Below, in pieces: positions 3,826-38,792 of a stretch of 52,055 nucleotides of DNA. The notes under the pieces are model-generated. The model was not told the origin of the DNA. It did no database searches and saw only the letters and a program-made list of their open reading frames with translations. The position numbers and the translations under genes were made by a program. Numbering within the stretch: the stretch's first letter is position 1; every line of letters begins with the position of its first letter. This DNA is from an uncultured Actinomycetales bacterium (lineage in GTDB: Bacteria; Actinomycetota; Actinomycetes; Actinomycetales; Angustibacteraceae), in contig CAXTEJ010000025.1 in NCBI GenBank assembly GCA_964243295.1, positions 1-52,055 on the forward strand, read 5' to 3'.

Positions 3826-4809
3826 ATGTCCGTTCCCACCTGGGTCTGGCTGACCACCGTCGGCGTCGCCATGGTGTTCCTGCTCGTCGACGTCTTCATC
3901 ATCGGCCGGCGTCCGCACGAGCCGAGCATGGGCGAGTCGGGCCGCCACCTGGCGTTCTTCGTCGCGGCGGCGCTGATCTTCGGTCTCGGCGTCTGGTACT
4001 TCGCCGGTGGCAGGTTCGCCGCGGAGTACTACGCGGGCTGGCTCACCGAGTACTCGCTGTCGATCGACAACCTGTTCATCTTCATCATCATCATGGGCAA
4101 GTTCGCGGTGCCGAGGCACCTGCAGCAGAGCGCCCTGCTCATCGGCATCATCCTGGCGCTGATCTTCCGCGGGATCTTCATCGCCGTCGGCGCCGCGGCG
4201 ATCAACCAGTTCAGCTGGGTGTTCTACCTGTTCGGCGCCTTCCTGGTCTACACGGCCGTCAAGCTCGCCCGCGAGAACGGCGACGACGACGACGAGTTCC
4301 AGGACAACAAGCTGATCGCCTTCACCAAGCGCCACCTGTCGGCCACCGACGAGTACCACGGCACGCACCTGACGATCAAGCGGGACGGCAAGCGCTTCGT
4401 CACCCCGATGCTGCTGGTGCTCATCGCGCTCGGCACGACCGACCTGCTGTTCGCGCTCGACTCCATCCCGGCGATCTACGGCCTCACCAAGGAGCCGTAC
4501 CTCGTGCTGATGGCCAACATCTTCGCGCTCATGGGCCTGCGGCAGCTGTACTTCCTCATCGGCGGGCTGCTCACGCGGCTGGTCTACCTCAGCCTCGGCC
4601 TCGCGTTCCTGCTGCTCTTCATCGGCGTCAAGCTGATCCTGCACGCGCTCCACGAGAACGAGCTGCCGTTCATCAACGGCGGCGAGCACGTGCCGTGGGC
4701 ACCCGACATCCCGATCTGGCTGTCGCTGCTCGTCATCCTCGGCACCCTCGTCGTCACCGCCGTCGCGAGCCTCGCCAAGACCCGGCGCGACGAGCAGGCG
4801 CTGTCCTGA
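3826..4809 (+). CDS. TerC-family integral membrane protein (putative Mn2+/metal exporter)
   Basis: 327 aa, multi-TM. Motifs EYSLSIDNLFIFIIIMGKF and ALDSIPAIYGLT are typical of the TerC/Alx family. Very high GC3. Confidence 0.85.
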   Translation: MSVPTWVWLTTVGVAMVFLLVDVFIIGRRPHEPSMGESGRHLAFFVAAALIFGLGVWYFAGGRFAAEYYAGWLTEYSLSIDNLFIFIIIMGKFAVPRHLQQSALLIGIILALIFRGIFIAVGAAAINQFSWVFYLFGAFLVYTAVKLARENGDDDDEFQDNKLIAFTKRHLSATDEYHGTHLTIKRDGKRFVTPMLLVLIALGTTDLLFALDSIPAIYGLTKEPYLVLMANIFALMGLRQLYFLIGGLLTRLVYLSLGLAFLLLFIGVKLILHALHENELPFINGGEHVPWAPDIPIWLSLLVILGTLVVTAVASLAKTRRDEQALS

Positions 4810-5485: not shown

Positions 5486-6067
5486 TCAGCGATCGGTGCG
5501 AGCGGGCTCGAGGCCGAGGGCGGCGCGGGCGGCGGTGAGCGTGCTGGCGCGCAGCACCGCCGGGTCGTCGTCGGGCTCAGCGAAGAGCACGGTGCCGTGC
5601 ACGCCACCGAGCACGAAGCGGACCCGGGCGCGCGCTTGCGGCGAGTCACCGGCCGGACCGGCGAGCAGGGTGGTCAGCTGGAGGTAGAACTCGCGGCCCG
5701 CCTCCATGGCCGGCCGGCCGGTGGCTGAGGGGTCCTGCACGAGCACCCCCAGGAGCCGCCGGTGCTCGAGGACGACGTCGAGGTAACCGGCCAGGGCCGA
5801 TGCCCGGACGGCGTCGTCCACCGGCTGCACCGCATGCCCGGCGAGCACCCGGTTCAGCTCGTCCAGGACCGGCTCGACCAGGGCCTGCAGCAGGTCGTCC
5901 TTGGTGTGGAAGTGGTAGTACAGCGCCGCCTTGGTGAAGCCCAGCCGTTCGGACAGCTCGCGGGTCGTCGTCGCGGCGAAACCGTGTGCGGCGAACAGCT
6001 CCAGCGCGACGTCGAGGATGCGCTGCCGCGTCGATGCTGCAGCGCAGGGGGCGGCGTTGAGGGACAT
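5486..6067 (-). CDS. TetR/AcrR family transcriptional regulator
   Basis: N-terminal HTH RQRILDVALELFAAHGFAATTTRELSERLGFTKAALYYHF. Start taken at ATG 6067 (MSLNAAP..); an upstream in-frame start at 6109 is possible. Divergent from the MMPL gene. Confidence 0.8.
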   Translation of the reverse strand: MSLNAAPCAAASTRQRILDVALELFAAHGFAATTTRELSERLGFTKAALYYHFHTKDDLLQALVEPVLDELNRVLAGHAVQPVDDAVRASALAGYLDVVLEHRRLLGVLVQDPSATGRPAMEAGREFYLQLTTLLAGPAGDSPQARARVRFVLGGVHGTVLFAEPDDDPAVLRASTLTAARAALGLEPARTDR

Positions 6068-6156: not shown

Positions 6157-8298
6157 ATGTTCGCGCGTCTCGCCCAGCTGGTCGTCCACCACCCGTGGCG
6201 GGTGATCCTCGCCTGGGTCATCGCGGCCGTCGCCATCATCGGCTTCGCCCCGACACTGACCTCGACCAGTGACACCGCCAGCTTCCTGCCTCGCGACTAC
6301 GAGTCGATCAAGGCTCAGGACGTGCAGGAGAAGGCCTTCCCGTCCGCGGCCGCCCCGGCCGCACTGGTCGTGGTGGAGCGCCGGGACGGTTCGCCCCTGA
6401 CCGCCGCCGACTCCACGCAGGTCACCGAGATCGCGGCAGCGCTGACTGCGGCGGACATCCCGTTCGTCGACGCGATCACCGCCACGCCGGCCTCGAGCAA
6501 CAGGCTCGTCCAGATCATCGCCGTGCAGATGCCGACGGTGACCGACCCCGCCGACACCCGGTCCAACGACGCTGTCACCGAGCTGCGCGCGCAGCTGCAG
6601 GGCGAGCTGTCCGGCACTGAGCTGGTCGGCGGCATCACCGGCTCGGCGGCGCAGCAGCTGGACGCCGCCGAGTCCGGGAGCAGGGCCGAGGTGATCATCG
6701 GCGTCGCCACGATCGGGTTGATCCTGGTGCTGCTGCTGATCATCTTCCGCAGCCCGATCATCGCGTTCCTGCCGGTGATCACGATCGGCGTCGTCTCGCA
6801 GGTGGCCACGGGGCTGATCGCCTGGGCCAACGACGTCTTCGGTCTGCAGACCGACAGCTCGTCCAGCGCGATCCTGATCGTGGTGCTGTTCGGCGTCGGC
6901 ACCGACTACATCCTCTTCCTGATGTTCCGCTACCGGGAGCGGCTGCGCGCCGGGGAGGACTCCAGGACGGCGATGATCCACGCCGTCAGCCGGGTGGGGG
7001 AGGCCATCACCTCGGCCGCCTTCGCGGTGATCATCGCCTTCCTGGCGCTGACCCTGTCCACCCTGGGACTGTTCAAGTCCCTCGGCCCGGCGCTGGCCAT
7101 CGCGGTGGCGGTGACCCTGGTCGCGGGGCTCACGCTCATCCCGGCGATCGTCTCGCTGCTGGGCACCAGGGTGTTCTGGCCGTCGAAGGCCTGGCGCACC
7201 GAGCCCAAGGCGGCCCGGATCACCGCTGTCGGCAACTCGCTGGGCCGCCATCCCGTCCGCTACGTCGCCGGCGCCGGTGGAGCGATGCTGCTGCTGTCGA
7301 TCGCCGCGCTGGGGTTCAGTGCGAACTTCGACCTCACGGGTGGTTCCACCGCCAGTGCCTCGGAGTCCAGCACGTACAGCCAGGAGCTGCTGAAGGGGCT
7401 ACCGGCCGGGGCCACCCAGCCCACCTACGTCTTCCTGCAGTCCGCCGGCGACACGCTGACCCCGGCTCAGCTGAGCGACTTCGGCAGCAGCCTGACCGGC
7501 GTCGCGGGGGTCGGTACGGTCGGCGAGCCGGTCCTGTCGGAGGACGGGACCGTCGCCGACTACACCGTCACCCTCGCCGACAGCCCGGAGTCCAAGGCCG
7601 CCATCGCGACGGTGGACGGGCCACTGCGGGAGGCCGCGCACGCCGCCGCACCGGGAGGCGCGACGGCGCTGGTCGGCGGGGTCACGGCGATCTACGTCGA
7701 CATCCAGGCCGCGGTGAACCACGACTACCTGGTCGTGTTCCCGGTGGCCGCCCTGCTGATCATGGCGATCCTGGCGCTCCAGCTGCGCAACCTCGTCGCT
7801 CCGGTGTACCTGATGATCTCGGTGGGGCTGGGCTTCACCGCGACGCTCGGCGCCACCGTCCTGATCTTCCAGCAGCTCGCGGGCGAGCCGGGGCTGCTGT
7901 TCATCCTGCCGGTGATCATGTACCTGTTCGTGGTCGCGCTGGGCACCGACTACAACATCCTGATGGTCTCCCGGCTGCGTGAGGAGGCGCAGGAGGGGAG
8001 GTCGCCACGGCAGGCAGCTGCCCTGGCCGTCCGGCACGCGGGGCCGACCATCGCTGCAGCGGGTCTCATCCTGGCCGGGACGTTCGCCTCACTGATGCTG
8101 GCCGGCAACGCGACGCTGACGCAGATGGGGTTCGCGATCTCCTTCGGGATCGCGATCTCGGCCTTCGTGATGGCGATGTTCCTGACCCCGGCGCTGACCG
8201 CGCTGCTGGGGCACGCCGCCTGGTGGCCCGGCAACGGGGACTCACCCCAGCACGGCAGCGACCACGACGAGCGGGCGACGGTCGCCGCGCAGGCCTGA
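6157..8298 (+). CDS. MMPL family (RND superfamily) membrane transporter
   Basis: About 713 aa. Two 6-TM bundles separated by soluble domains; MFARLAQLVVHHPWRVILAWV... start is typical of MmpL proteins. GGAAGG SD 10 nt upstream. Alternative start 6139. Confidence 0.85.
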   Translation: MFARLAQLVVHHPWRVILAWVIAAVAIIGFAPTLTSTSDTASFLPRDYESIKAQDVQEKAFPSAAAPAALVVVERRDGSPLTAADSTQVTEIAAALTAADIPFVDAITATPASSNRLVQIIAVQMPTVTDPADTRSNDAVTELRAQLQGELSGTELVGGITGSAAQQLDAAESGSRAEVIIGVATIGLILVLLLIIFRSPIIAFLPVITIGVVSQVATGLIAWANDVFGLQTDSSSSAILIVVLFGVGTDYILFLMFRYRERLRAGEDSRTAMIHAVSRVGEAITSAAFAVIIAFLALTLSTLGLFKSLGPALAIAVAVTLVAGLTLIPAIVSLLGTRVFWPSKAWRTEPKAARITAVGNSLGRHPVRYVAGAGGAMLLLSIAALGFSANFDLTGGSTASASESSTYSQELLKGLPAGATQPTYVFLQSAGDTLTPAQLSDFGSSLTGVAGVGTVGEPVLSEDGTVADYTVTLADSPESKAAIATVDGPLREAAHAAAPGGATALVGGVTAIYVDIQAAVNHDYLVVFPVAALLIMAILALQLRNLVAPVYLMISVGLGFTATLGATVLIFQQLAGEPGLLFILPVIMYLFVVALGTDYNILMVSRLREEAQEGRSPRQAAALAVRHAGPTIAAAGLILAGTFASLMLAGNATLTQMGFAISFGIAISAFVMAMFLTPALTALLGHAAWWPGNGDSPQHGSDHDERATVAAQA

Positions 8299-22819: not shown

Positions 22820-23170
22820 ATGGCAGGCGGCAACGCGATCAGAGGCAGCCGGGTCGGCGCCGGCCCGATGGGCGAGGCCGAGCGCGGCGACGCGGCGCCC
22901 CGGCTGGTCCTCTCGTACTGGTGCGCCAACGGCCACGAGACCCGGCCGAGCTTCGCCGACGAGCCGGGCATCCAGGTGCCCGAGACCTGGGACTGCCCGC
23001 GCTGCGGGTTCCCCGCCGGTCAGGACAAGGCGAGCCCGCCGTCCCCGAACCGCGTCGAGCCCTACAAGACGCACCTGGCCTACGTGAAGGAGCGCCGCAG
23101 CGACACCGACGGCCAGGCCATCCTCACCGAGGCCCTCGAGCAGCTGCGCTCCCGCGGTCTCATCCGCTGA
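22820..23170 (+). CDS. rbpA: RNA polymerase-binding protein RbpA
   Basis: 116 aa. IRGSRVGA N-terminus, RbpA core with Cys ligands (YWCANGHE...WDCPRCGF) and basic C-terminal sigma-interaction helix (ILTEALEQLRSRGLIR). Confidence 0.8.
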   Translation: MAGGNAIRGSRVGAGPMGEAERGDAAPRLVLSYWCANGHETRPSFADEPGIQVPETWDCPRCGFPAGQDKASPPSPNRVEPYKTHLAYVKERRSDTDGQAILTEALEQLRSRGLIR

Positions 23171-23186: not shown

Positions 23187-23215
23187 GAGCCCGGTTCCCC
23201 TCGGGGAGCCGGGCG
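23187..23215 (+). terminator. Hairpin immediately after rbpA
   Basis: gagcccgg-ttcccctcggggag-ccgggc nested stem-loop 17 nt after the rbpA stop. Confidence 0.35.
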
Positions 23216-23220
23216 CCGTC

Positions 23221-23283
23221 GCGTCCGAGGCCGATCGTCGCGTCCGAGGCCGATCCGCCGCGTCTGACGCCGATTCGCCGCGA
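23221..23283 (+). repeat. About 3 copies of a ~19-bp tandem repeat (gtcgcgtccgaggccgatc)
   Basis: gtcgcgtccgaggccgatc gtcgcgtccgaggccgatc cgccgcgtctgacgccgattcgccgcg; intergenic. Confidence 0.6.
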
Positions 23284-23287
23284 CCCC

Positions 23288-23400
23288 CCGTGATCATGCG
23301 ATCCCGGACCACCCGCCCGCCCCCCGCCCCGCCGTGATCATGCAGCTCCGGATCACCCGGCGCGACCCACGTGATCATGCGATCCCGGACCAGGCGCTGG
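23288..23400 (+). repeat. Array of 3 (plus 1 degenerate) forward copies of dispersed repeat unit CCGTGATCATGC(G/A)ATCCCGG(A/C)CC
   Basis: ccgtgatcatgcgatcccggacc / ccgtgatcatgcagctccggatcacc / acgtgatcatgcgatcccggacc; partial gtgatc....ccggcc at about 23407. Confidence 0.75.
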
Positions 23401-23450
23401 CCTCGCCGTGATCCCGGCCCGGCCGCGCGGGCGGACGTCGGCAGGCGGGT

Positions 23451-23510
23451 GGGCCGGGATTGCATGATCACGGCGGGGGTGGGCCGGGATTGCATGATCC
23501 CGGGGGGGCT
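23451..23510 (+). repeat. Array of 2 reverse-orientation copies of the same repeat unit (GGGCCGGGATTGCATGATCACGGCGG)
   Basis: gggccgggattgcatgatcacggcggg / gggccgggattgcatgatcccggggg. Reverse complement of the forward unit; forward and reverse arrays face each other across a ~60-bp GC-rich centre between convergent rbpA and pgl. Confidence 0.75.
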
Positions 23511-23531
23511 GGTGGGCCGGTGCCTGCGGGT

Positions 23532-24317
23532 TCAGTCCTCGGTGGCGGGGAGCAGGTGGTCGGGGACGCCGGCTGCGGCGGCGGCGTCGAGCAGCCACAG
23601 GGTCGCCTCACGGCCGTGCACGGCGCCGGCGGGGGCCTCGGCCGGCGCGGCGCCGCTGAGAGCGAGCCGCACCGCCTCGGCGCGGTCGGCGCCCGCGGTC
23701 ATCAGCCAGGCCTGGCGCGCCGAGCACAGCGCCGGCACCGTCAGGCTGAGCCGGATCGGCGGCGGCTTGGGGGAGTCGTGGACGGCGATCACCGACGAGC
23801 CGTGCTCGTGCACCCCGGGCAGGCCGGGGAACAGCGAGGCCACGTGCGCGTCGGGGCCGACGCCCAGCATCAGCACGTCGAACACCGCCCCGCCGACCTC
23901 GGTGCCGCCGCCGGCCTTCGCCGACAGCTCGCGGGCGTAGCGGTGCGCTGCGGCGGCGACGTCGTCGCCGTCCGGGCCGTCACTGGCCGCCATGACGTGC
24001 ACGCGAGCCGGGTCGAGCGGCAGGACGTCGAGCAGCACGCCGCGCGCCTGCGTCTCGTTGCGGTCGGGGTCGCCTGCCGGCAGGAAGCGCTCGTCGCCCC
24101 ACCAGACGTCGACGCGGTCCCATCGCACGGCGTCACGGGCGGGGGAGGTCGCGAGCGCCGCGAGCACCGCGGTGCCCGTCGACCCGCCGGTGACCACGAT
24201 CGACGCGGTGCCGCGCGCGGCCTGCGCGTCGACGATGGCGGTCACCAGCCTGGCGCCCACCGCCTCCGCCAGCGTCGCCGCATCGGGGTGGACGACGACG
24301 CTGGGCTGAGCGCTCAC
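23532..24317 (-). CDS. pgl: 6-phosphogluconolactonase
   Basis: 261 aa from GTG. VSAQPSVVVHPDAATLAEAVGARL, GGSTGTAVL, DERFLPAGDPDRNE, VLMLGVGPDAHVASLFPG are DevB/Pgl motifs. GTGA overlap with opcA. Confidence 0.9.
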   Translation of the reverse strand: MSAQPSVVVHPDAATLAEAVGARLVTAIVDAQAARGTASIVVTGGSTGTAVLAALATSPARDAVRWDRVDVWWGDERFLPAGDPDRNETQARGVLLDVLPLDPARVHVMAASDGPDGDDVAAAAHRYARELSAKAGGGTEVGGAVFDVLMLGVGPDAHVASLFPGLPGVHEHGSSVIAVHDSPKPPPIRLSLTVPALCSARQAWLMTAGADRAEAVRLALSGAAPAEAPAGAVHGREATLWLLDAAAAAGVPDHLLPATED

Positions 24318-33483: not shown

Positions 33484-33504
33484 CGCGGGCGGGCTCAGCC
33501 CGCG
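33484..33504. terminator. Bidirectional stem-loop between convergent ctaB and M15 peptidase genes
   Basis: cgcgggc-gggctca-gcccgcg, 7-bp stem overlapping both stop codons (genes 11 bp apart). Confidence 0.4.
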
Positions 33505-34820
33505 AACTCCCAGTGCCACGGCTCGGGCCGGCTGCCGTCGGCCCGCGCCCACGAGGGGTGGAACCACCCTGACAGCGGCGCGTGCTGCCGCATCCACCCG
33601 TGCTGTGCGCTGCCGAACCGCTGCACCCCGCCGCACAGGTCGAGTGCGACCCCCCACCCGTGGTTGCTGGTGCCCGGTCGGGCGGCGAGCTGCGGCTTGG
33701 TCTGCGCCAGCCGCACCTGGTCGGCCAGCGGCCGGTAGGAGTCGGTGACGCACAGCGGCGTGCCGAAGTCGGCGGCGAAGGCGTGCGACAGCGACACGAA
33801 CGCGGCGGCCGCGTCGGCCCGCAGCAGCTGCCCCGGCGAGCTCCACAGCGGGCACAGCGCGGACGTCGGCAGCTGGCCGTTCGGGTACGCCGACAGGTCG
33901 CCGCCCTGGCACGCCCCTGCGGGCAGGGCGCCGGGCGCCCGCTGGGCGAAGCCGTGCCCGTCCTCGTCGCCCCACGTCGCGGCGACACCCAGCAGCGCGG
34001 CCTGCCGGTCGCGCTCGCGCTCGGCGACCTCCCGCAGGCGCTCGGCCTCGGCAGCCAGCCGCTGCTGCTCCTGACGGTGGCGCAGCGCCGCGCGGTCGGC
34101 GGCGAGCACGGCCTGCAGCAGGGCGAGGTGGTCCCGCTGGACCGCGAGGAGCTGCTGGCTGCGGACGCGCAGCGCCTCGGCCTGCGTCGCGGCGGCGGTG
34201 GCGCTGGCGCTCGCCGATTCGGCCCGGGCCTGGTCGAGGGCGGCGTCGCGCTGCACCTGCACGGCGCGCTCGGCGTCGTGCGAGCGGGCGGCCGACACGT
34301 TGCGCAGGGTGGCGAGGGCGCTGGCCGCGGTGGAGGGCGTCGCGTCCTGCAGCACGACCAGCGCGGCCGACAGCTCGCCGGCTCCGCCGGCGTGCACGTA
34401 CGACCAGCGCGCCCACTGGCTCACCGCGGCGCGGGAGCTCCGTGCCGACTGCTGCGCGTCGCCGGCCACGAGGTGCTGGACGACCTCGACCGTCCTGGCC
34501 TGCGACAGCTGCCGCTGGGCGGCCTGGTAGGCCTCGAGCGCCTGCGAGGCGGCGTCGGACACGGCGTCCAGCTCGGCCTCGACACCGGCGACGGCTCGCT
34601 CGCTGTCGCCCACTGCGTCGGCGTCGCCAGTGGTGGTCGGGATGGCCGACGGCGTCGGCGCGGCGTAGAGCGCGGCTGCGGGCGCCGCGGCTGCGGGTGT
34701 TGGGGTCTGCAGGGCCGCGGCGGGCGCGAGCGGCAGGGCGAGGGTCGCCAGCAGCGCGAGGACGGCGGCGCGCGGCCGGCGGTGCCGACGTCCGGCAGCG
34801 ACGTGCTGGCGTGGCCGCAC
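33495..34820 (-). CDS. Secreted M15-family (VanY/LAS-type) D-Ala-D-Ala carboxypeptidase-like protein with long coiled-coil N-terminal region
   Basis: Signal-peptide-like N-terminus (RRHRRPRAAVLALLATLALPLAPAAA), ~250 aa Ala/Glu/Gln/Arg-rich predicted coiled coil, C-terminal zinc-peptidase motifs SNHGWGVALDL and EPWHWE. Start uncertain. Confidence 0.7.
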   Translation of the reverse strand: MRPRQHVAAGRRHRRPRAAVLALLATLALPLAPAAALQTPTPAAAAPAAALYAAPTPSAIPTTTGDADAVGDSERAVAGVEAELDAVSDAASQALEAYQAAQRQLSQARTVEVVQHLVAGDAQQSARSSRAAVSQWARWSYVHAGGAGELSAALVVLQDATPSTAASALATLRNVSAARSHDAERAVQVQRDAALDQARAESASASATAAATQAEALRVRSQQLLAVQRDHLALLQAVLAADRAALRHRQEQQRLAAEAERLREVAERERDRQAALLGVAATWGDEDGHGFAQRAPGALPAGACQGGDLSAYPNGQLPTSALCPLWSSPGQLLRADAAAAFVSLSHAFAADFGTPLCVTDSYRPLADQVRLAQTKPQLAARPGTSNHGWGVALDLCGGVQRFGSAQHGWMRQHAPLSGWFHPSWARADGSRPEPWHWEFAG

Positions 34821-34922: not shown

Positions 34923-35885
34923 TCAGCGCGTGAGGGTGAGTGGCGGTCGTTGCCGCAGGGTCATGACGGCCCGCGTGACGGCCACGACGAGCAGGCACGC
35001 CCCCAGCATGTGCAGCGCGACCGCGACGACCGGCAGGCCGGTGAGGTACTGCACGTACCCGATCAGACCCTGCAGCAGCCCGACGCCCAGCACGACCAGG
35101 CCGGCGCGGCGGGCGGCGGCGGGGGCATCGGTGAGGCGCAGCGCCACGAGCAGTGCCAGGAGCACGCCGAACCACACGAGCACGGCGTCGGCGTGCAGCC
35201 AGCTGATGGCGCGCGGGTCGAAGCCGAAGCGCGCGTTCGCGCCCTCGTCGCCCGAGTGCGGGCCGGAGCCGGTGACGACGGTGCCCAGCACCACGACCAC
35301 GGCGGTCAGCGCCGCGAGCGCGAGCGCCATCCACCACAGCTCGGCCCGGACGACGAGCGCCGGCCGGCCGTCCGGCTGCCCCATCCGCACGAGCAGGGCG
35401 ACCGAGCAGGCGACGATCACGGCCGAGACCAGGAAGTGCAGCGCCACGGTGGCCGGCGACAGGCCGGTGAGCACGGTGACGCCCCCGATGACCGCCTGCG
35501 CGACGACACCGAGCAGCGGGACCGCGCCGAACGCGACCAGCCGGCGCGGCCTGCGGCGGCGCACGACGTCGACGACCACGGCGACCAGCGACAGCAGGGC
35601 CGTGACGCCCACGACGCTGATCAGCGTGCGGTTGCCGAACTCGATGTACTTGTGGAAGCCCTGCGCCTGGTCGGCGACCGGGACGTACGACCCGTCCACG
35701 CACTCGGGCCAGGTCGGGCAGCCCAGGCCCGAGCCGGTGAGGCGGACCACGCCGCCGGTGACGACGATGCTCACCTGCGCGACGACGTTCGCGATCAGCG
35801 ACCACCGCATCCAGGCGCGCAGCCCGTCAGTGGCAGCCGGGCGCACGTCCCGCGCGGGAGGGGTCAGCTGCGCCGAGGTCGCCAC
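34923..35885 (-). CDS. ctaA: Heme A synthase (COX15/CtaA)
   Basis: Multi-TM. Conserved Cys pair in loop 1 (GSGLGCPTWPECVDG) and His ligands (ALHFLVS, ALHMLGA). GTG 35885 chosen; ATG 35810 is the alternative. The 630-aa ORF-track entry runs on through the repeat array and is rejected upstream of 35885. Confidence 0.8.
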   Translation of the reverse strand: MATSAQLTPPARDVRPAATDGLRAWMRWSLIANVVAQVSIVVTGGVVRLTGSGLGCPTWPECVDGSYVPVADQAQGFHKYIEFGNRTLISVVGVTALLSLVAVVVDVVRRRRPRRLVAFGAVPLLGVVAQAVIGGVTVLTGLSPATVALHFLVSAVIVACSVALLVRMGQPDGRPALVVRAELWWMALALAALTAVVVVLGTVVTGSGPHSGDEGANARFGFDPRAISWLHADAVLVWFGVLLALLVALRLTDAPAAARRAGLVVLGVGLLQGLIGYVQYLTGLPVVAVALHMLGACLLVVAVTRAVMTLRQRPPLTLTR

Positions 35886-35982
35886 GGGTCCAGGGTAGGT
35901 CAGCCGCGTCCCGCCGGCCGGTGCCCATCGCGCCGTGTGACGCAGCCGACCCGCCGCCGCGACGTCCGCCCGCCGCCCCCTC

Positions 35983-36112
35983 CCGTGATCATGCAATCCT
36001 GGCCCGCGGCCTCGCGTGATCATGCGATCCCGGCCCACCCGACGGCGCCCCTCGTCCTGATCATGCACGTGTGGCCCAGCCCTGCCGTGATCATGCACGT
36101 CCGGCCCAACCC
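35983..36112 (+). repeat. Array of 4 forward copies (plus 1 degenerate) of the dispersed repeat unit, upstream of the GNAT gene
   Basis: cccgtgatcatgcaatcctggccc / gcgtgatcatgcgatcccggccc / cctgatcatgcacgtgtggccc / ccgtgatcatgcacgtccggccc at 31- to 41-bp spacing; same family as 23288-23510. Confidence 0.75.
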
Positions 36113-36368
36113 CTCGTGCTGATCCGGCGATCCCTGCCCGCCCCGTCGCCCTCGGTCCCGGGCCGTCGGCCCGGCGATGGCTGCAGGTGCCGTTGTGACA
36201 GCCGGGTGGTGATGCAGCCACGTCGTGCACACGCCGGTGTCCACGCTGCCAATCCGGGCACAGGCACCCCTGCGGCGGAACGGCGTGAACACGGACCCAC
36301 GAGGCCTTCCCAGCCGGAAGCCGACAGCCGACGTCCAGCACGACACACGTCGGCCTAGGCTGCCGCCC

Positions 36369-36854
36369 GTGCGCATCCGCCCCGCCACCGAGCCGGACTG
36401 GCCCTCGATGTGGCCGCTCGTGGCGGAGGTGGCCGCCGCGGGGGAGACCTACGCCCTGCCCGACGACCTCACCTCGGAGGTCGCGCGTGACATGTGGCTG
36501 GAGCAGCCGCCCGGTCTCACGGTCGTCGCGGTCGAGGGCGACGTCGTCCTGGGGATGGCGAAGACGGGCCCCAACCGGCCCGGCCGCGGTGCGCACGTGT
36601 CGACGGCCAGCTTCATGGTGGCCGGGTGGGCGCGAGGCCGCGGCGTCGGGCGGGCCCTGTGTGAGCACGTCCTCGAGCATGCGCGGGACGCCGGCTACCG
36701 CAGCATGCAGTTCAACGCCGTCGTCGAGACCAACACCGTCGCCGTGCGGTTGTGGCGGTCGCTCGGCTTCGAGGTGCTGACCACGGTGCCCGAGGCGTTC
36801 GATCACCCGGTCCACGGGCTGGTCGGGCTGAACGTGATGTTCACGCGGCTCTGA
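36369..36854 (+). CDS. GNAT family N-acetyltransferase
   Basis: 161 aa from GTG. Acetyl-CoA-binding motif A region (MVAGWARGRGVGRALCEHVLEHARDAGYRSMQ) and LWRSLGFEV. ORF-track start 36225 adds 48 codons with noticeably lower GC3 and two hairpins, so it was taken as leader. Confidence 0.7.
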   Translation: MRIRPATEPDWPSMWPLVAEVAAAGETYALPDDLTSEVARDMWLEQPPGLTVVAVEGDVVLGMAKTGPNRPGRGAHVSTASFMVAGWARGRGVGRALCEHVLEHARDAGYRSMQFNAVVETNTVAVRLWRSLGFEVLTTVPEAFDHPVHGLVGLNVMFTRL

Positions 36855-36865
36855 CCGAGGAGGAC

Positions 36866-36982
36866 GGGCCGCGATCGCATGATCACGGCGGAGGCGGCGG
36901 GGCGGCGAGCGGGCCGGGATTGCATGATCACGGCGGAGGCTGCGGGACGGCGAGCGGGCCGGGATTGCATGATCACGGCGGG
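36866..36982 (+). repeat. Array of 3 reverse-orientation copies of the dispersed repeat unit at 44-bp period, downstream of the GNAT gene
   Basis: gggccgcgatcgcatgatcacggcgg / gggccgggattgcatgatcacggcgg / gggccgggattgcatgatcacggcgg. 'Spacers' nearly identical (aggcggcggggcggcgagc vs aggctgcgggacggcgagc), so tandem duplication, not CRISPR. Confidence 0.75.
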
Positions 36983-37004
36983 GTGGGCGCGCGGTCAGTC
37001 CCAG

Positions 37005-37043
37005 CGGTGAGTCCCAGCAGTCAGTCCCAGTGGAACCAGCGGG
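37005..37043 (+). repeat. 3 x ~13-bp tandem repeat (gtcagtcccagcg-like) overlapping the 3' end of the ABC permease gene
   Basis: gtcagtcccagcg gtgagtcccagca gtcagtcccagtg; encodes the ...WFHWD* C-terminus on the opposite strand and extends into intergenic DNA. Confidence 0.5.
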
Positions 37044-37785
37044 CGGCGGCGGCGCCGGCGACGGCGGCCCACACCAGCAGCACGGCGCAGGGGCCGAGCG
37101 CGAGGTGCCCGCCGACCAGGGCGCTGCGCATGGCCTCGCCGAGGGCGCCGGAGGGCAGGGCCTCGGCGACGTGCGAGAGCACGGGCGGCAGCCGGTCGGC
37201 CGGCACGACGACGCCGCCGCCGGCGAGCAGGAGCACCCACAGCAGGTTGGCGGCGGCCAGCGTGGCCTCGGCCCGCAGCGTCCCGGCGAGCAGCAGAGCC
37301 AGGGCCACGAACGCCGCCGTGCCGAGGACGACGGCCACGACCGCCGCGGGGACGCCGAACCACCGCGGGTGCCAGCCGAGGGCCAGGCCGAGGCCGCCGA
37401 GGACCACGACCTGCAGCACCTGCACGGCCAGCACGGCCACGACCTTGCCCGCCAGCAGCCCCGACCGGCCGAGCGGCGTGGTGCCGAGCATGCGCAGCAC
37501 GCCGTAGCGGCGGTCGAACCCGGCGGCGATCGCCTGGCCGCTGAACGACGTCGACATGACCGCGAGCGTCAGCACTCCGGGCACCAGGACGTCGATGCGG
37601 CGTCCGGCACCGAGGTCGGGCGTCGACGTCCGCTCGAGGGCCACGAGCAGCAGCACGGGGAGCGCGATCGCGAGCAGCAGCTGCTCGGCGTTGCCGAGGA
37701 TGAGCCGGGTCTCGAGCCGACCCTGGGCCAGCACGCGGCGCGCCAGCGACGCTGCGGCCGGGGGGGCGAGGGCGGGCGCCGTCAC
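37021..37785 (-). CDS. ABC-2 type transporter permease
   Basis: 254 aa from GTG (GTGA overlap with the ATPase stop). Six hydrophobic segments. Position equivalent to Rv1457c. Confidence 0.75.
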   Translation of the reverse strand: MTAPALAPPAAASLARRVLAQGRLETRLILGNAEQLLLAIALPVLLLVALERTSTPDLGAGRRIDVLVPGVLTLAVMSTSFSGQAIAAGFDRRYGVLRMLGTTPLGRSGLLAGKVVAVLAVQVLQVVVLGGLGLALGWHPRWFGVPAAVVAVVLGTAAFVALALLLAGTLRAEATLAAANLLWVLLLAGGGVVVPADRLPPVLSHVAEALPSGALGEAMRSALVGGHLALGPCAVLLVWAAVAGAAAARWFHWD

Positions 37786-38711
37786 CGACGGCCACCGGTC
37801 AGGTCGAGGAAGACGTCCTCCAGGCTGCGGCGACCGACGGTCAGGCCCTGCGGCATGACCTGCTGCGACGCGCACCACGAGGTGATGGTCGCGAGCACGA
37901 GCGGGTCGATGAGCCCGGTGATGAGGTACTGCCCGCGGGCCGGCTCGCCCACCTGGACGTCCGGTGGCAGCGCCTCGCGCATCGAGCTGAGGTCGAGCCC
38001 GGCCGGGGCGGAGAAGCGGACGGCCTCGGCGCTGTCACCGACGTCCGTGAGCGCCGTGGGCGAGCCGTGGGCGACGACGGTGCCGGCCGAGACCAGCACC
38101 ACGTCGTCGGCGAGGCGCTCGGCCTCCTCGATCAGGTGCGTGGTGAGGACGACGGCCGTGCCCGACGCGCGGATCTCACCCACGAGCTCCCACACGGCGA
38201 TCCTGGCCTGCGGGTCGAGGCCGGCGCTCGGCTCGTCGAGGAACAGCACGCGGGGCCGGCCGACCACGGCGCAGGCGAGGGCCACGCGCTGGCGCTGCCC
38301 GCCGGACAGCCGGCGCACCGGCGTCCGGTCGAGGTCGGCGATGCCGAGACGCTCGGCGAGCACCAGCGGGTCGAGCGGCGCGGCGTGCATCCGGGCGACG
38401 TGGCGCACGAGCTCGAGCGGGCGGGCGCCGTTGGGCAGGCCGCCTCCCTGCAGCATCACGCCGACGGCCGCCCGGTGGTCGGGGCCGGCGGTGAGGGGAT
38501 CGGCGCCCAGCACGCGGACGGTGCCCGAGTCGGGGGAGCGCAGGCCCTCGCAGCACTCGATCGTGGTGGTCTTGCCCGCGCCGTTGGTGCCGAGCACCGC
38601 GGTGACCTCGCCGGCAGCGGCGGTGAAGGACAGCCCGTCGACCACCCGGCGCCCGGCGTAGGACTTCACCAGCCCGTCGACGACCACGAGGTGGTCGCGC
38701 GGGCTGGGCAT
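37782..38711 (-). CDS. ABC transporter ATP-binding protein
   Basis: 309 aa from ATG (CGAGG SD). Walker A GTNGAGKTT, signature LSGGQRQRV, Walker B VLFLDEPSAGLD. ORF-track start 38786 adds 25 unneeded residues. Confidence 0.85.
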   Translation of the reverse strand: MPSPRDHLVVVDGLVKSYAGRRVVDGLSFTAAAGEVTAVLGTNGAGKTTTIECCEGLRSPDSGTVRVLGADPLTAGPDHRAAVGVMLQGGGLPNGARPLELVRHVARMHAAPLDPLVLAERLGIADLDRTPVRRLSGGQRQRVALACAVVGRPRVLFLDEPSAGLDPQARIAVWELVGEIRASGTAVVLTTHLIEEAERLADDVVLVSAGTVVAHGSPTALTDVGDSAEAVRFSAPAGLDLSSMREALPPDVQVGEPARGQYLITGLIDPLVLATITSWCASQQVMPQGLTVGRRSLEDVFLDLTGGRR

Positions 38712-38792
38712 GGCCTCGAGTGTAGGTCGCCGCCCCCGAGCCGCCTGCACCGATCGCGCGCTGCCCCGGTTGAGTGCAGCGGCCAATTAGCG

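Follow-up and report, generated by a model that had tools for sequence, protein, structure and literature searches.

Among the dispersed repeats of bacteria, the closest described relatives in kind of the element reported here are REP sequences (repetitive extragenic palindromes) of Proteobacteria, with the bacterial interspersed mosaic elements (BIMEs) and REP doublets forming hairpins (REPINs), all mobilised by REP-associated tyrosine transposases (RAYTs), and the miniature inverted-repeat transposable elements (MITEs). MITEs are small, non-coding and bounded by terminal inverted repeats, and MITE-flanked composites such as integron mobilisation units and the Tn3-derived inverted-repeat miniature elements (TIMEs) bracket passenger genes. 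Transposons can also have multi-site ends, e.g. the TnsB sites of Tn7, L1-L3 and R1-R3 of Mu, and the multiple terminal repeats of IS21. To our knowledge, REP, REPIN and MITE repeats are well studied in Proteobacteria and poorly described in high-GC Actinomycetota, where the mycobacterial interspersed repetitive units (MIRUs) are the classical tandemly repeated intergenic units. The present analysis concerns a palindromic repeat in contig CAXTEJ010000025.1 of an uncultured Actinomycetales bacterium (Angustibacteraceae), which was analysed over its entire length of 52,055 nt (the window). The repeat occupies two loci. At locus A its inverted arms enclose a gene for a GNAT N-acetyltransferase, between ctaA and an ABC permease gene, and at locus B the arms are present without cargo.

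We interpret the block at locus A as a copy of a REP/MITE-like palindromic element with the GNAT gene lodged as a passenger at its centre, and assign this interpretation a probability of about 0.5. As with REPs, BIMEs and REPINs, the units are short, GC-rich and intergenic, lying at gene 3' ends or in the spacers of convergent genes; they are clustered and lack target-site duplications, and orthologous sites may have or lack them. Inverted pairs form hairpins in the manner of REPIN doublets, single doublets being found in records L004, L014 and L053. The family differs from REPs in that a single unit is not significantly palindromic: two units folded alone gave -3.5 and -1.1 kcal/mol (z = -0.77 and +0.75), neither a significant hairpin. 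Moreover, its units are direct within an arm and inverted between arms, whereas those of BIMEs alternate in orientation, and it has an outer C-run/G-run tract, an actinobacterial host, and one copy with a whole gene at its centre.

With MITEs and the composites derived from them, the family shares terminal inverted repeats and, at locus A, inverted ends that bracket a passenger. The ends, however, consist of 1-5 modules at variable spacing, and it is a single palindrome that encloses the passenger, not a pair of complete MITE copies; we know of no related insertion sequence. The first-pass annotation had proposed a MITE-like element, which holds insofar as this is a dispersed family with terminal inverted repeats, but not as regards target-site duplications flanking the arrays: 12 arm pairings, taken from 10 loci, showed none at any symmetric offset. 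Several direct sites of about 20-30 bp per end, inverted between ends and with cargo between them, are also reminiscent of multi-site transposon ends. Here, though, site number and spacing are not fixed, neither a transposase among the genes examined nor a target duplication was found, and most copies are ends alone, down to a hairpin of 46 nt. Correia/NEMIS elements of Neisseria and MIRUs are likewise small dispersed intergenic repeats able to affect transcript ends, but show no sequence relationship to the repeat of the window; in Correia elements TA is duplicated at the target, and MIRUs form direct tandem repeats with no palindrome. The family therefore departs from MITEs in one defining feature (target duplication) and from REPs in another (a palindromic unit), while behaving overall like both, as a small intergenic repeat that forms hairpins and varies in its presence at orthologous sites.

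Architecture of the two repeat loci

The module is about 30 bp long and consists of a C-run followed by a 22-nt core, CGTGATCATGCRATCCCGGCCC. An 11-nt section of the core, GTGATCATGCA, occurs 14 times in the window with at most one mismatch (0.46 expected), and 12 of these occurrences lie within loci A and B. A model built from the sequences of the 12 intact units, run over the whole window with filters off, recovered the 12 themselves (E = 3e-7 to 3e-11) along with two degenerate units; every one lies at the two loci, and there was no copy elsewhere in the window.

At locus A, four forward units had been reported upstream of the GNAT gene, and these were found again together with a degenerate fifth; the start-to-start distances of the four intact cores are 31, 41 and 30 nt. 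The three reverse-complement units reported downstream are also present, but at a period of 45 bp and not the strict 44 bp first given. The 45-nt copies match one another at 94%, and their spacers are 91% identical. A CRISPR array, already discounted in the first-pass annotation because these spacers are near-identical, is ruled out further by the varying repeat cores and by the arrangement of the arrays as inverted blocks. The GNAT gene between the arms is complete and encodes 161 amino acids, as stated earlier.

The palindrome does not end with the innermost units. When 36853-36865 is read as its reverse complement, 11 of its 13 nt agree with 36145-36157, in register with the innermost units f5 and r1; random 13-mers of the window reach such a match at a frequency of 2e-4. 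Since the arms extend 13 nt inward of the innermost units, the passenger is delimited to 36158-36852 (695 bp, leader plus GNAT gene), at the exact centre of the palindrome. As inverted repeats flank the segment, it was also considered as an inverton; no recombinase gene is present among the window genes examined.

The cargo-less second copy noted near 23288-23510 was confirmed, its cores spanning 23289-23502. DNA of locus B (23270-23520) folds into a single hairpin of -95.9 kcal/mol (z = -5.97). Its forward units have GGACC in common and its reverse units GGCCC. Coordinates for both loci and their surroundings are collected in Table 1. A terminator-like hairpin of rbpA (~23190-23215) stands just upstream of the 20-nt tandem repeat that adjoins locus B.

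Table 1. Repeat loci A and B of the window, with the passenger and neighbouring genes.
Feature	Position	Strand	Remarks
Lineage-specific segment (locus A)	35952-37019		BLAST alignments with L051 and L017 lose collinearity at 35951/35955 and 37020
Forward arm	35971-36141	+	four intact modules, C-rich tract before each, plus degenerate fifth
Forward cores, intact (22 nt)	35984-36005, 36015-36036, 36056-36077, 36086-36107	+
Fifth forward unit	36120-36141	+	degenerate
Left palindrome arm, inward continuation	36142-36157	+	match to right arm
Leader	36158-36368	+	211 nt, part of passenger; holds two small hairpins
GNAT N-acetyltransferase gene	36369-36854	+	PF00583; stop codon spans junction with right palindrome arm
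Reverse arm	36853-36990	-	inward continuation 36853-36865, three modules at 45-bp period, G-rich outer tract
Reverse-complement cores	36866-36887, 36911-36932, 36956-36977	-
Tandem triplication of ABC permease 3' end	36991-37030	-	13 nt x 3.1, abuts element
ctaA	34923-35885	-	neighbour of GNAT block
ABC-2 permease gene	37021-37785	-	neighbour of GNAT block
ABC ATPase gene	37782-38750	-	beyond ABC-2 permease
Locus B, without cargo	23276-23515		between rbpA and pgl; one-hairpin fold
Forward cores of locus B	23289-23310, 23333-23354, 23370-23391	+
Degenerate unit of locus B	23395-23422
Reverse cores of locus B	23451-23472, 23481-23502	-
Tandem repeat CCGCCGCGTCCGAGGCCGAT	23216-23282	+	20 nt x 3.4, runs into outermost forward module of locus B
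rbpA	22820-23170		neighbour of locus B
pgl	23532-24317		neighbour of locus B

The insertion site in relatives and the passenger gene

The nearest named relatives of the window's CtaA are those of Angustibacter species. The closest contigs found were L051 and L017 (CtaA 90% and 86% identical, respectively), with L018 (72%) as a third relative. In these three, the ABC permease gene abuts ctaA, its stop codon being separated from ctaA by only 108 nt (L051), 106 nt (L017) and 58 nt (L018), with neither GNAT gene nor repeat in between. Including Angustibacter sp. McL0619 (L019), the GNAT gene is absent from the ctaA/ABC site in 4/4 related contigs, and none of the relatives compared keeps it there amid ordinary intergenic DNA. 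Judging by where the BLAST alignments with L051 and L017 lose and regain collinearity, some 1,065 nt of the window take the place of about 30 nt of the relatives' spacer; over the empty-site comparisons as a whole, ~30-58 nt are replaced, so the insertion is not a clean one. The proposal that the GNAT-repeat block was inserted into conserved ctaA-ABC synteny thus finds support, and on this alignment evidence the block is such an insertion.

Locus B is missing from the relative L052, derived from the same sample as L017, in which a 60-nt spacer with an ordinary 14-bp GC hairpin separates rbpA from pgl. Both loci of the window are therefore missing from the orthologous sites of its nearest relatives. 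Locus A in particular represents the gain of a single gene inside a highly conserved ctaA-ABC-suf neighbourhood, with a clear empty site for comparison.

Other differences were seen in the same neighbourhood. The permease/ctaA spacer of Angustibacter sp. McL0619 contains an unrelated open reading frame (ORF) of 141 amino acids with no Pfam match (5579-6004). Between ctaB and ctaA the window carries a gene with a VanY domain (D-Ala-D-Ala carboxypeptidase-like; 33495-34820). DNA homologous to it is present also in L051 and L017, a HEM4-domain gene takes its place in L018, and in Angustibacter sp. McL0619 there is nothing; the ctaB/ctaA spacer is therefore variable as well.

The GNAT protein matches PF00583 (Acetyltransf_1) with E = 1.4e-16, and among its homologues of solved structure PDB 4h89 ranks first (E = 4.9e-56), ahead of more distant enzymes of the PA4866/YncA/Mpr1 type. 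The GC content at third codon positions (GC3) is 0.95, like that of the neighbouring genes, indicating a native-like codon composition. The best homologues, likewise 161 amino acids long, share 74-76% protein identity and are found in other gene contexts. In L015 and L016 the gene comes after one for a peptidase S9, and recA lies several kb downstream. In L053 the closest homologue (76% identical; 3902-4531) sits between xseA and xseB, which are normally adjacent. Nucleotide homology to these three contigs is confined to the coding sequence, apart from ~12 nt upstream shared with L053, and no further donor-locus homology was detected in the GNAT flanks. None of the three homologues is flanked by repeat units, even though the L053 contig carries the repeat family, and no second copy of arrays plus GNAT gene was found. 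Judged by these contexts, the GNAT gene is a roaming one; since its homologues occur elsewhere without the repeat, it does not need the arrays to move. Of the earlier idea of a repeat-borne cassette, the insertion consequently stands, but movement of the GNAT gene by the arrays gained no support: target-site duplications, a transposase among the window genes examined, and a second copy of the composite all failed to appear.

The two leader hairpins described previously are present where they were placed (36306-36320 and 36327-36354). A structured leader or riboswitch was nevertheless rejected, because the fold of the 268-nt leader does not surpass that of shuffled sequence (z = +0.86). The leader yielded no match to Rfam, to sigma-70-type promoters or to intrinsic terminators, and the whole window gave no Rfam match at gathering thresholds, with only chance-level scores in 35800-37100. 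An exact-protein look-up returned no record for the window's own GNAT or RbpA.

The repeat family in Actinomycetota

The 19-nt core was scanned over species-representative genomes and over metagenome contigs. It was recovered in Planotetraspora mira, in a metagenome-assembled genome (MAG) of the Motilibacteraceae, and in several Actinomycetota MAGs and metagenome contigs. Matches in the non-actinobacterial records L001, L003, L007, L009 and L011 and in low-GC metagenome contigs were set aside as chance, having neither a C-run nor partner units. Conservation was assessed on 50 candidate units, about 3 of which are chance matches; it peaks between -7 and +20 around GTGATCATG, dropping on both sides. 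The GATC-N4-GATC sub-hairpin is absent from the commoner CAATCC variant and from P. mira.

Each of the 11 independent clusters with units of both orientations has its forward units at the left and its reverse units at the right. The arms point inwards, and copies devoid of cargo can therefore fold as one long hairpin. The outermost modules are inverted, with complementarity reaching into the C-run and G-run tracts, and the terminal inverted repeats read inwards as a C-run plus CGTGATCATGCAATCCCGG. The number of modules per arm ranges from 1 to 5 and their spacing from 17 to 53 nt. P. mira represents an elaborate form, in which two opposed arms hold 10 intact units between them, repeated every 53 nt, with an outer degenerate unit in addition, and which folds into one hairpin (z = -16); in the Motilibacteraceae MAG overlapping units are 17 nt apart. 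Minimal forms are single hairpins, near-perfect in L004 (~46 nt, ~2648-2694) and of 82 nt in L014 and 77 nt in L053.

The elements are intergenic, near gene 3' ends and stop codons, and often fill the spacer between convergent genes. In L053 the minimal element (1370-1446) takes up the whole spacer between rmuC and ispH. Its order is stop codon TGA, C-run, unit, 4-nt loop, unit, G-run and stop codon TCA, and the two stop codons extend the palindrome. In L004 (2648-2694) and L044 (~1944-1950), TGA within the unit (CGTGATC) coincides with the stop of the host gene as predicted by a crude GC3-based gene call, and the element seems to supply the stop codon.

A search of the literature on the core sequence and on REP, MITE and REPIN elements in Actinobacteria yielded no description of the family. 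On sequence grounds, the repeat is apparently an undescribed palindromic intergenic family of several high-GC actinobacterial lineages. A module of 19-30 bp that is conserved over several lineages implies a conserved partner protein, which should be findable. On a practical note, with their likeness to CRISPR or tandem-repeat calls, the arrays can lead annotation and the assembly of MAGs astray.

Cargo was seen in two cases, the GNAT gene of the window and a 316-aa gene with an AbiEi_1 domain that is bracketed by inward-pointing units in L002 (115-1065) and L013 (3348-4298). The latter two loci are 95% identical and were counted as one event. The AbiEi_1 protein has a nuclease-like C-terminal motif (EYDG..H), and a DnaA-box-like sequence, TGTGGATAAC, is located upstream of its gene. 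In L005 repeat units are found in both spacers flanking an AlkA-like gene, with the same orientation on both flanks. In L040 (2270-2750) there are two tandem copies of ~180 nt, each with a conserved interior of ~100 nt that contains an inverted repeat of its own (GCTACCGGATTC...GAATCGGGTAGC); between the copies lies a direct repeat of 28 nt of host-side sequence (2455-2482 and 2497-2524).

Array growth, mobility and competing explanations

At both loci of the window, units resemble their neighbours in the same arm more than their partners in the opposite arm. Because same-arm units are most alike, and because locus A contains a recent 45-nt tandem repeat, the arrays grow by local tandem duplication within an arm. 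Nested self-insertion was ruled out as the origin of the arrays in the window, since likeness follows the arm and not the mirror partner. The intact core amid drifting spacers could reflect selection, gene conversion or protein recognition acting on each unit.

Duplications are also found outside the element. The last 13 nt of the permease gene, including its stop codon, are triplicated on the minus strand beside the reverse arm (CCACTGGGACTGA / CTGCTGGGACTCA / CCGCTGGGACTGA), and exist as one copy in L017 and L051. Flanking duplications like those of loci A and B were seen in L006, L012, L040 and L044 as well. Duplications beside hairpins would be accounted for by slippage during replication or by a switch of template at stalled forks. 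At the GNAT junction of L053 the 3' end of xseA with its stop codon is triplicated (20 nt x 3), and no GTGATCATG units are present there; this suggests instead that the triplication is a footprint of the insertion process itself.

Searches for a source of mobility were negative. No transposase was recognised among the window genes examined, all of which are housekeeping genes, or among the ORFs scanned near units at three repeat-bearing loci. A two-unit pattern scan of viral contigs retrieved only unrelated low-GC tandem repeats, and BLAST against PLSDB only chance matches, with no plasmid-borne copy and no annotated mobile element.

On the interpretation given at the outset, the element would be non-autonomous and would be spread by an enzyme acting in trans without target duplication. 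Since no target duplication was found, recognition of hairpins of the REP/REPIN or IS200/IS605 type would be preferred to DDE cut-and-paste transposition. Breakage or template switching at the centre of a pre-existing element most likely let the GNAT fragment in, in which case the arrays would not have been its carrier. Intact copies probably serve as hairpins at transcript ends, a role that the copy split around the GNAT gene could not fulfil locally. Several points weigh against this interpretation. A mobilising enzyme was not identified in the window genes examined or in the ORFs near units at the three loci. Absence from the relatives is explained equally well by one insertion of arrays and gene together, and the intact cores of inner modules amid drifting spacers could equally mark protein-binding sites. 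CtaA is only 86-90% identical in the relatives, so that junctions are blurred and short target duplications could have decayed. Finally, triplicated gene ends beside the arrays here, and beside the repeat-less GNAT gene of L053, hint at a shared insertion process that the interpretation leaves unexplained.

A competing explanation is a composite, cargo-carrying transposon ("pack-MITE"), in which the arrays are multi-site transposase-binding ends similar to those of Tn7, Mu or IS21 that moved leader and GNAT gene to the ctaA/ABC site in one event, locus B being an ends-only derivative. A single event of this kind accounts for relatives with neither repeat nor gene. The arrangement of modules, direct at each end and inverted between ends, resembles such transposon ends, the core is conserved in the inner modules too, the AbiEi_1-domain gene of L002/L013 is likewise bracketed, and the triplicated permease end adjoins the array and not the gene. 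We nevertheless hold this explanation to be unlikely, if not strikingly so, given that the 12 arm pairings yielded no target-site duplication and the window genes examined no transposase, that the modules differ widely in number (1-5) and in spacing (17-53 nt), and that single-pair hairpins are common. Furthermore, the composite of arrays and GNAT gene was not met a second time, and GNAT homologues occur without the repeat even in a genome that bears the family. A further idea, which we rate as distinctly unlikely, is that some conserved protein of actinobacteria, either a transposase or one domesticated from it, recognises the 30-bp module, with palindrome centres acting as capture sites by which single accessory genes enter core-gene neighbourhoods that are otherwise rigid, and the triplications as the footprint of this capture. 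If palindrome centres do capture genes, this would provide a simple route for the insertion of accessory genes that needs no transposon.

The modules might alternatively be bound by a DNA-binding protein conserved in the hosts, with the arrays forming a regulatory or architectural scaffold, or a roadblock, for the GNAT gene, ctaA and other flanking genes. This would fit an AT-richer core (GTGATCATGCAAT) that is invariant in DNA of 73% GC while the spacers have diverged, the occurrence of the same 19-mer in several actinobacterial lineages, and the position of the forward array within the divergent ctaA/GNAT promoter region. Against it, both loci are missing in close relatives in which ctaA, the permease gene, rbpA and pgl are otherwise conserved, the flanking genes are functionally unrelated from one locus to the next, most copies lie at gene 3' ends and not at promoters, and the literature searched yielded no operator sequence that matches. 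We regard this explanation as quite improbable, and the regulatory scaffold controlling the acetyltransferase, as envisaged in the first-pass annotation, gained no supporting evidence. Very improbable indeed is that the GNAT gene is ancestral at the site and was lost from the relatives, its two arrays being independent insertions around a resident gene. The AlkA-like gene of L005, with units in both flanking spacers, offers a parallel, but there the two flanks share one orientation. Independent insertions should each hold both orientations, whereas at locus A the left array is purely forward and the right purely reverse, and its arms pair in register beyond the units; the four related contigs, moreover, have no GNAT gene at the site.

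Two further observations concern the contigs that carry GNAT homologues. In L015 and L016 the homologue is followed (~6500-6560) by a different, near-perfect hairpin of ~60 nt (CACCGTTGTGTCCGAAGTGGC...GCCACTTCGGACACAACGGTG), which may be a member of another repeat family. The recA gene of L016 contains a match to a LAGLIDADG (intein-type) domain.

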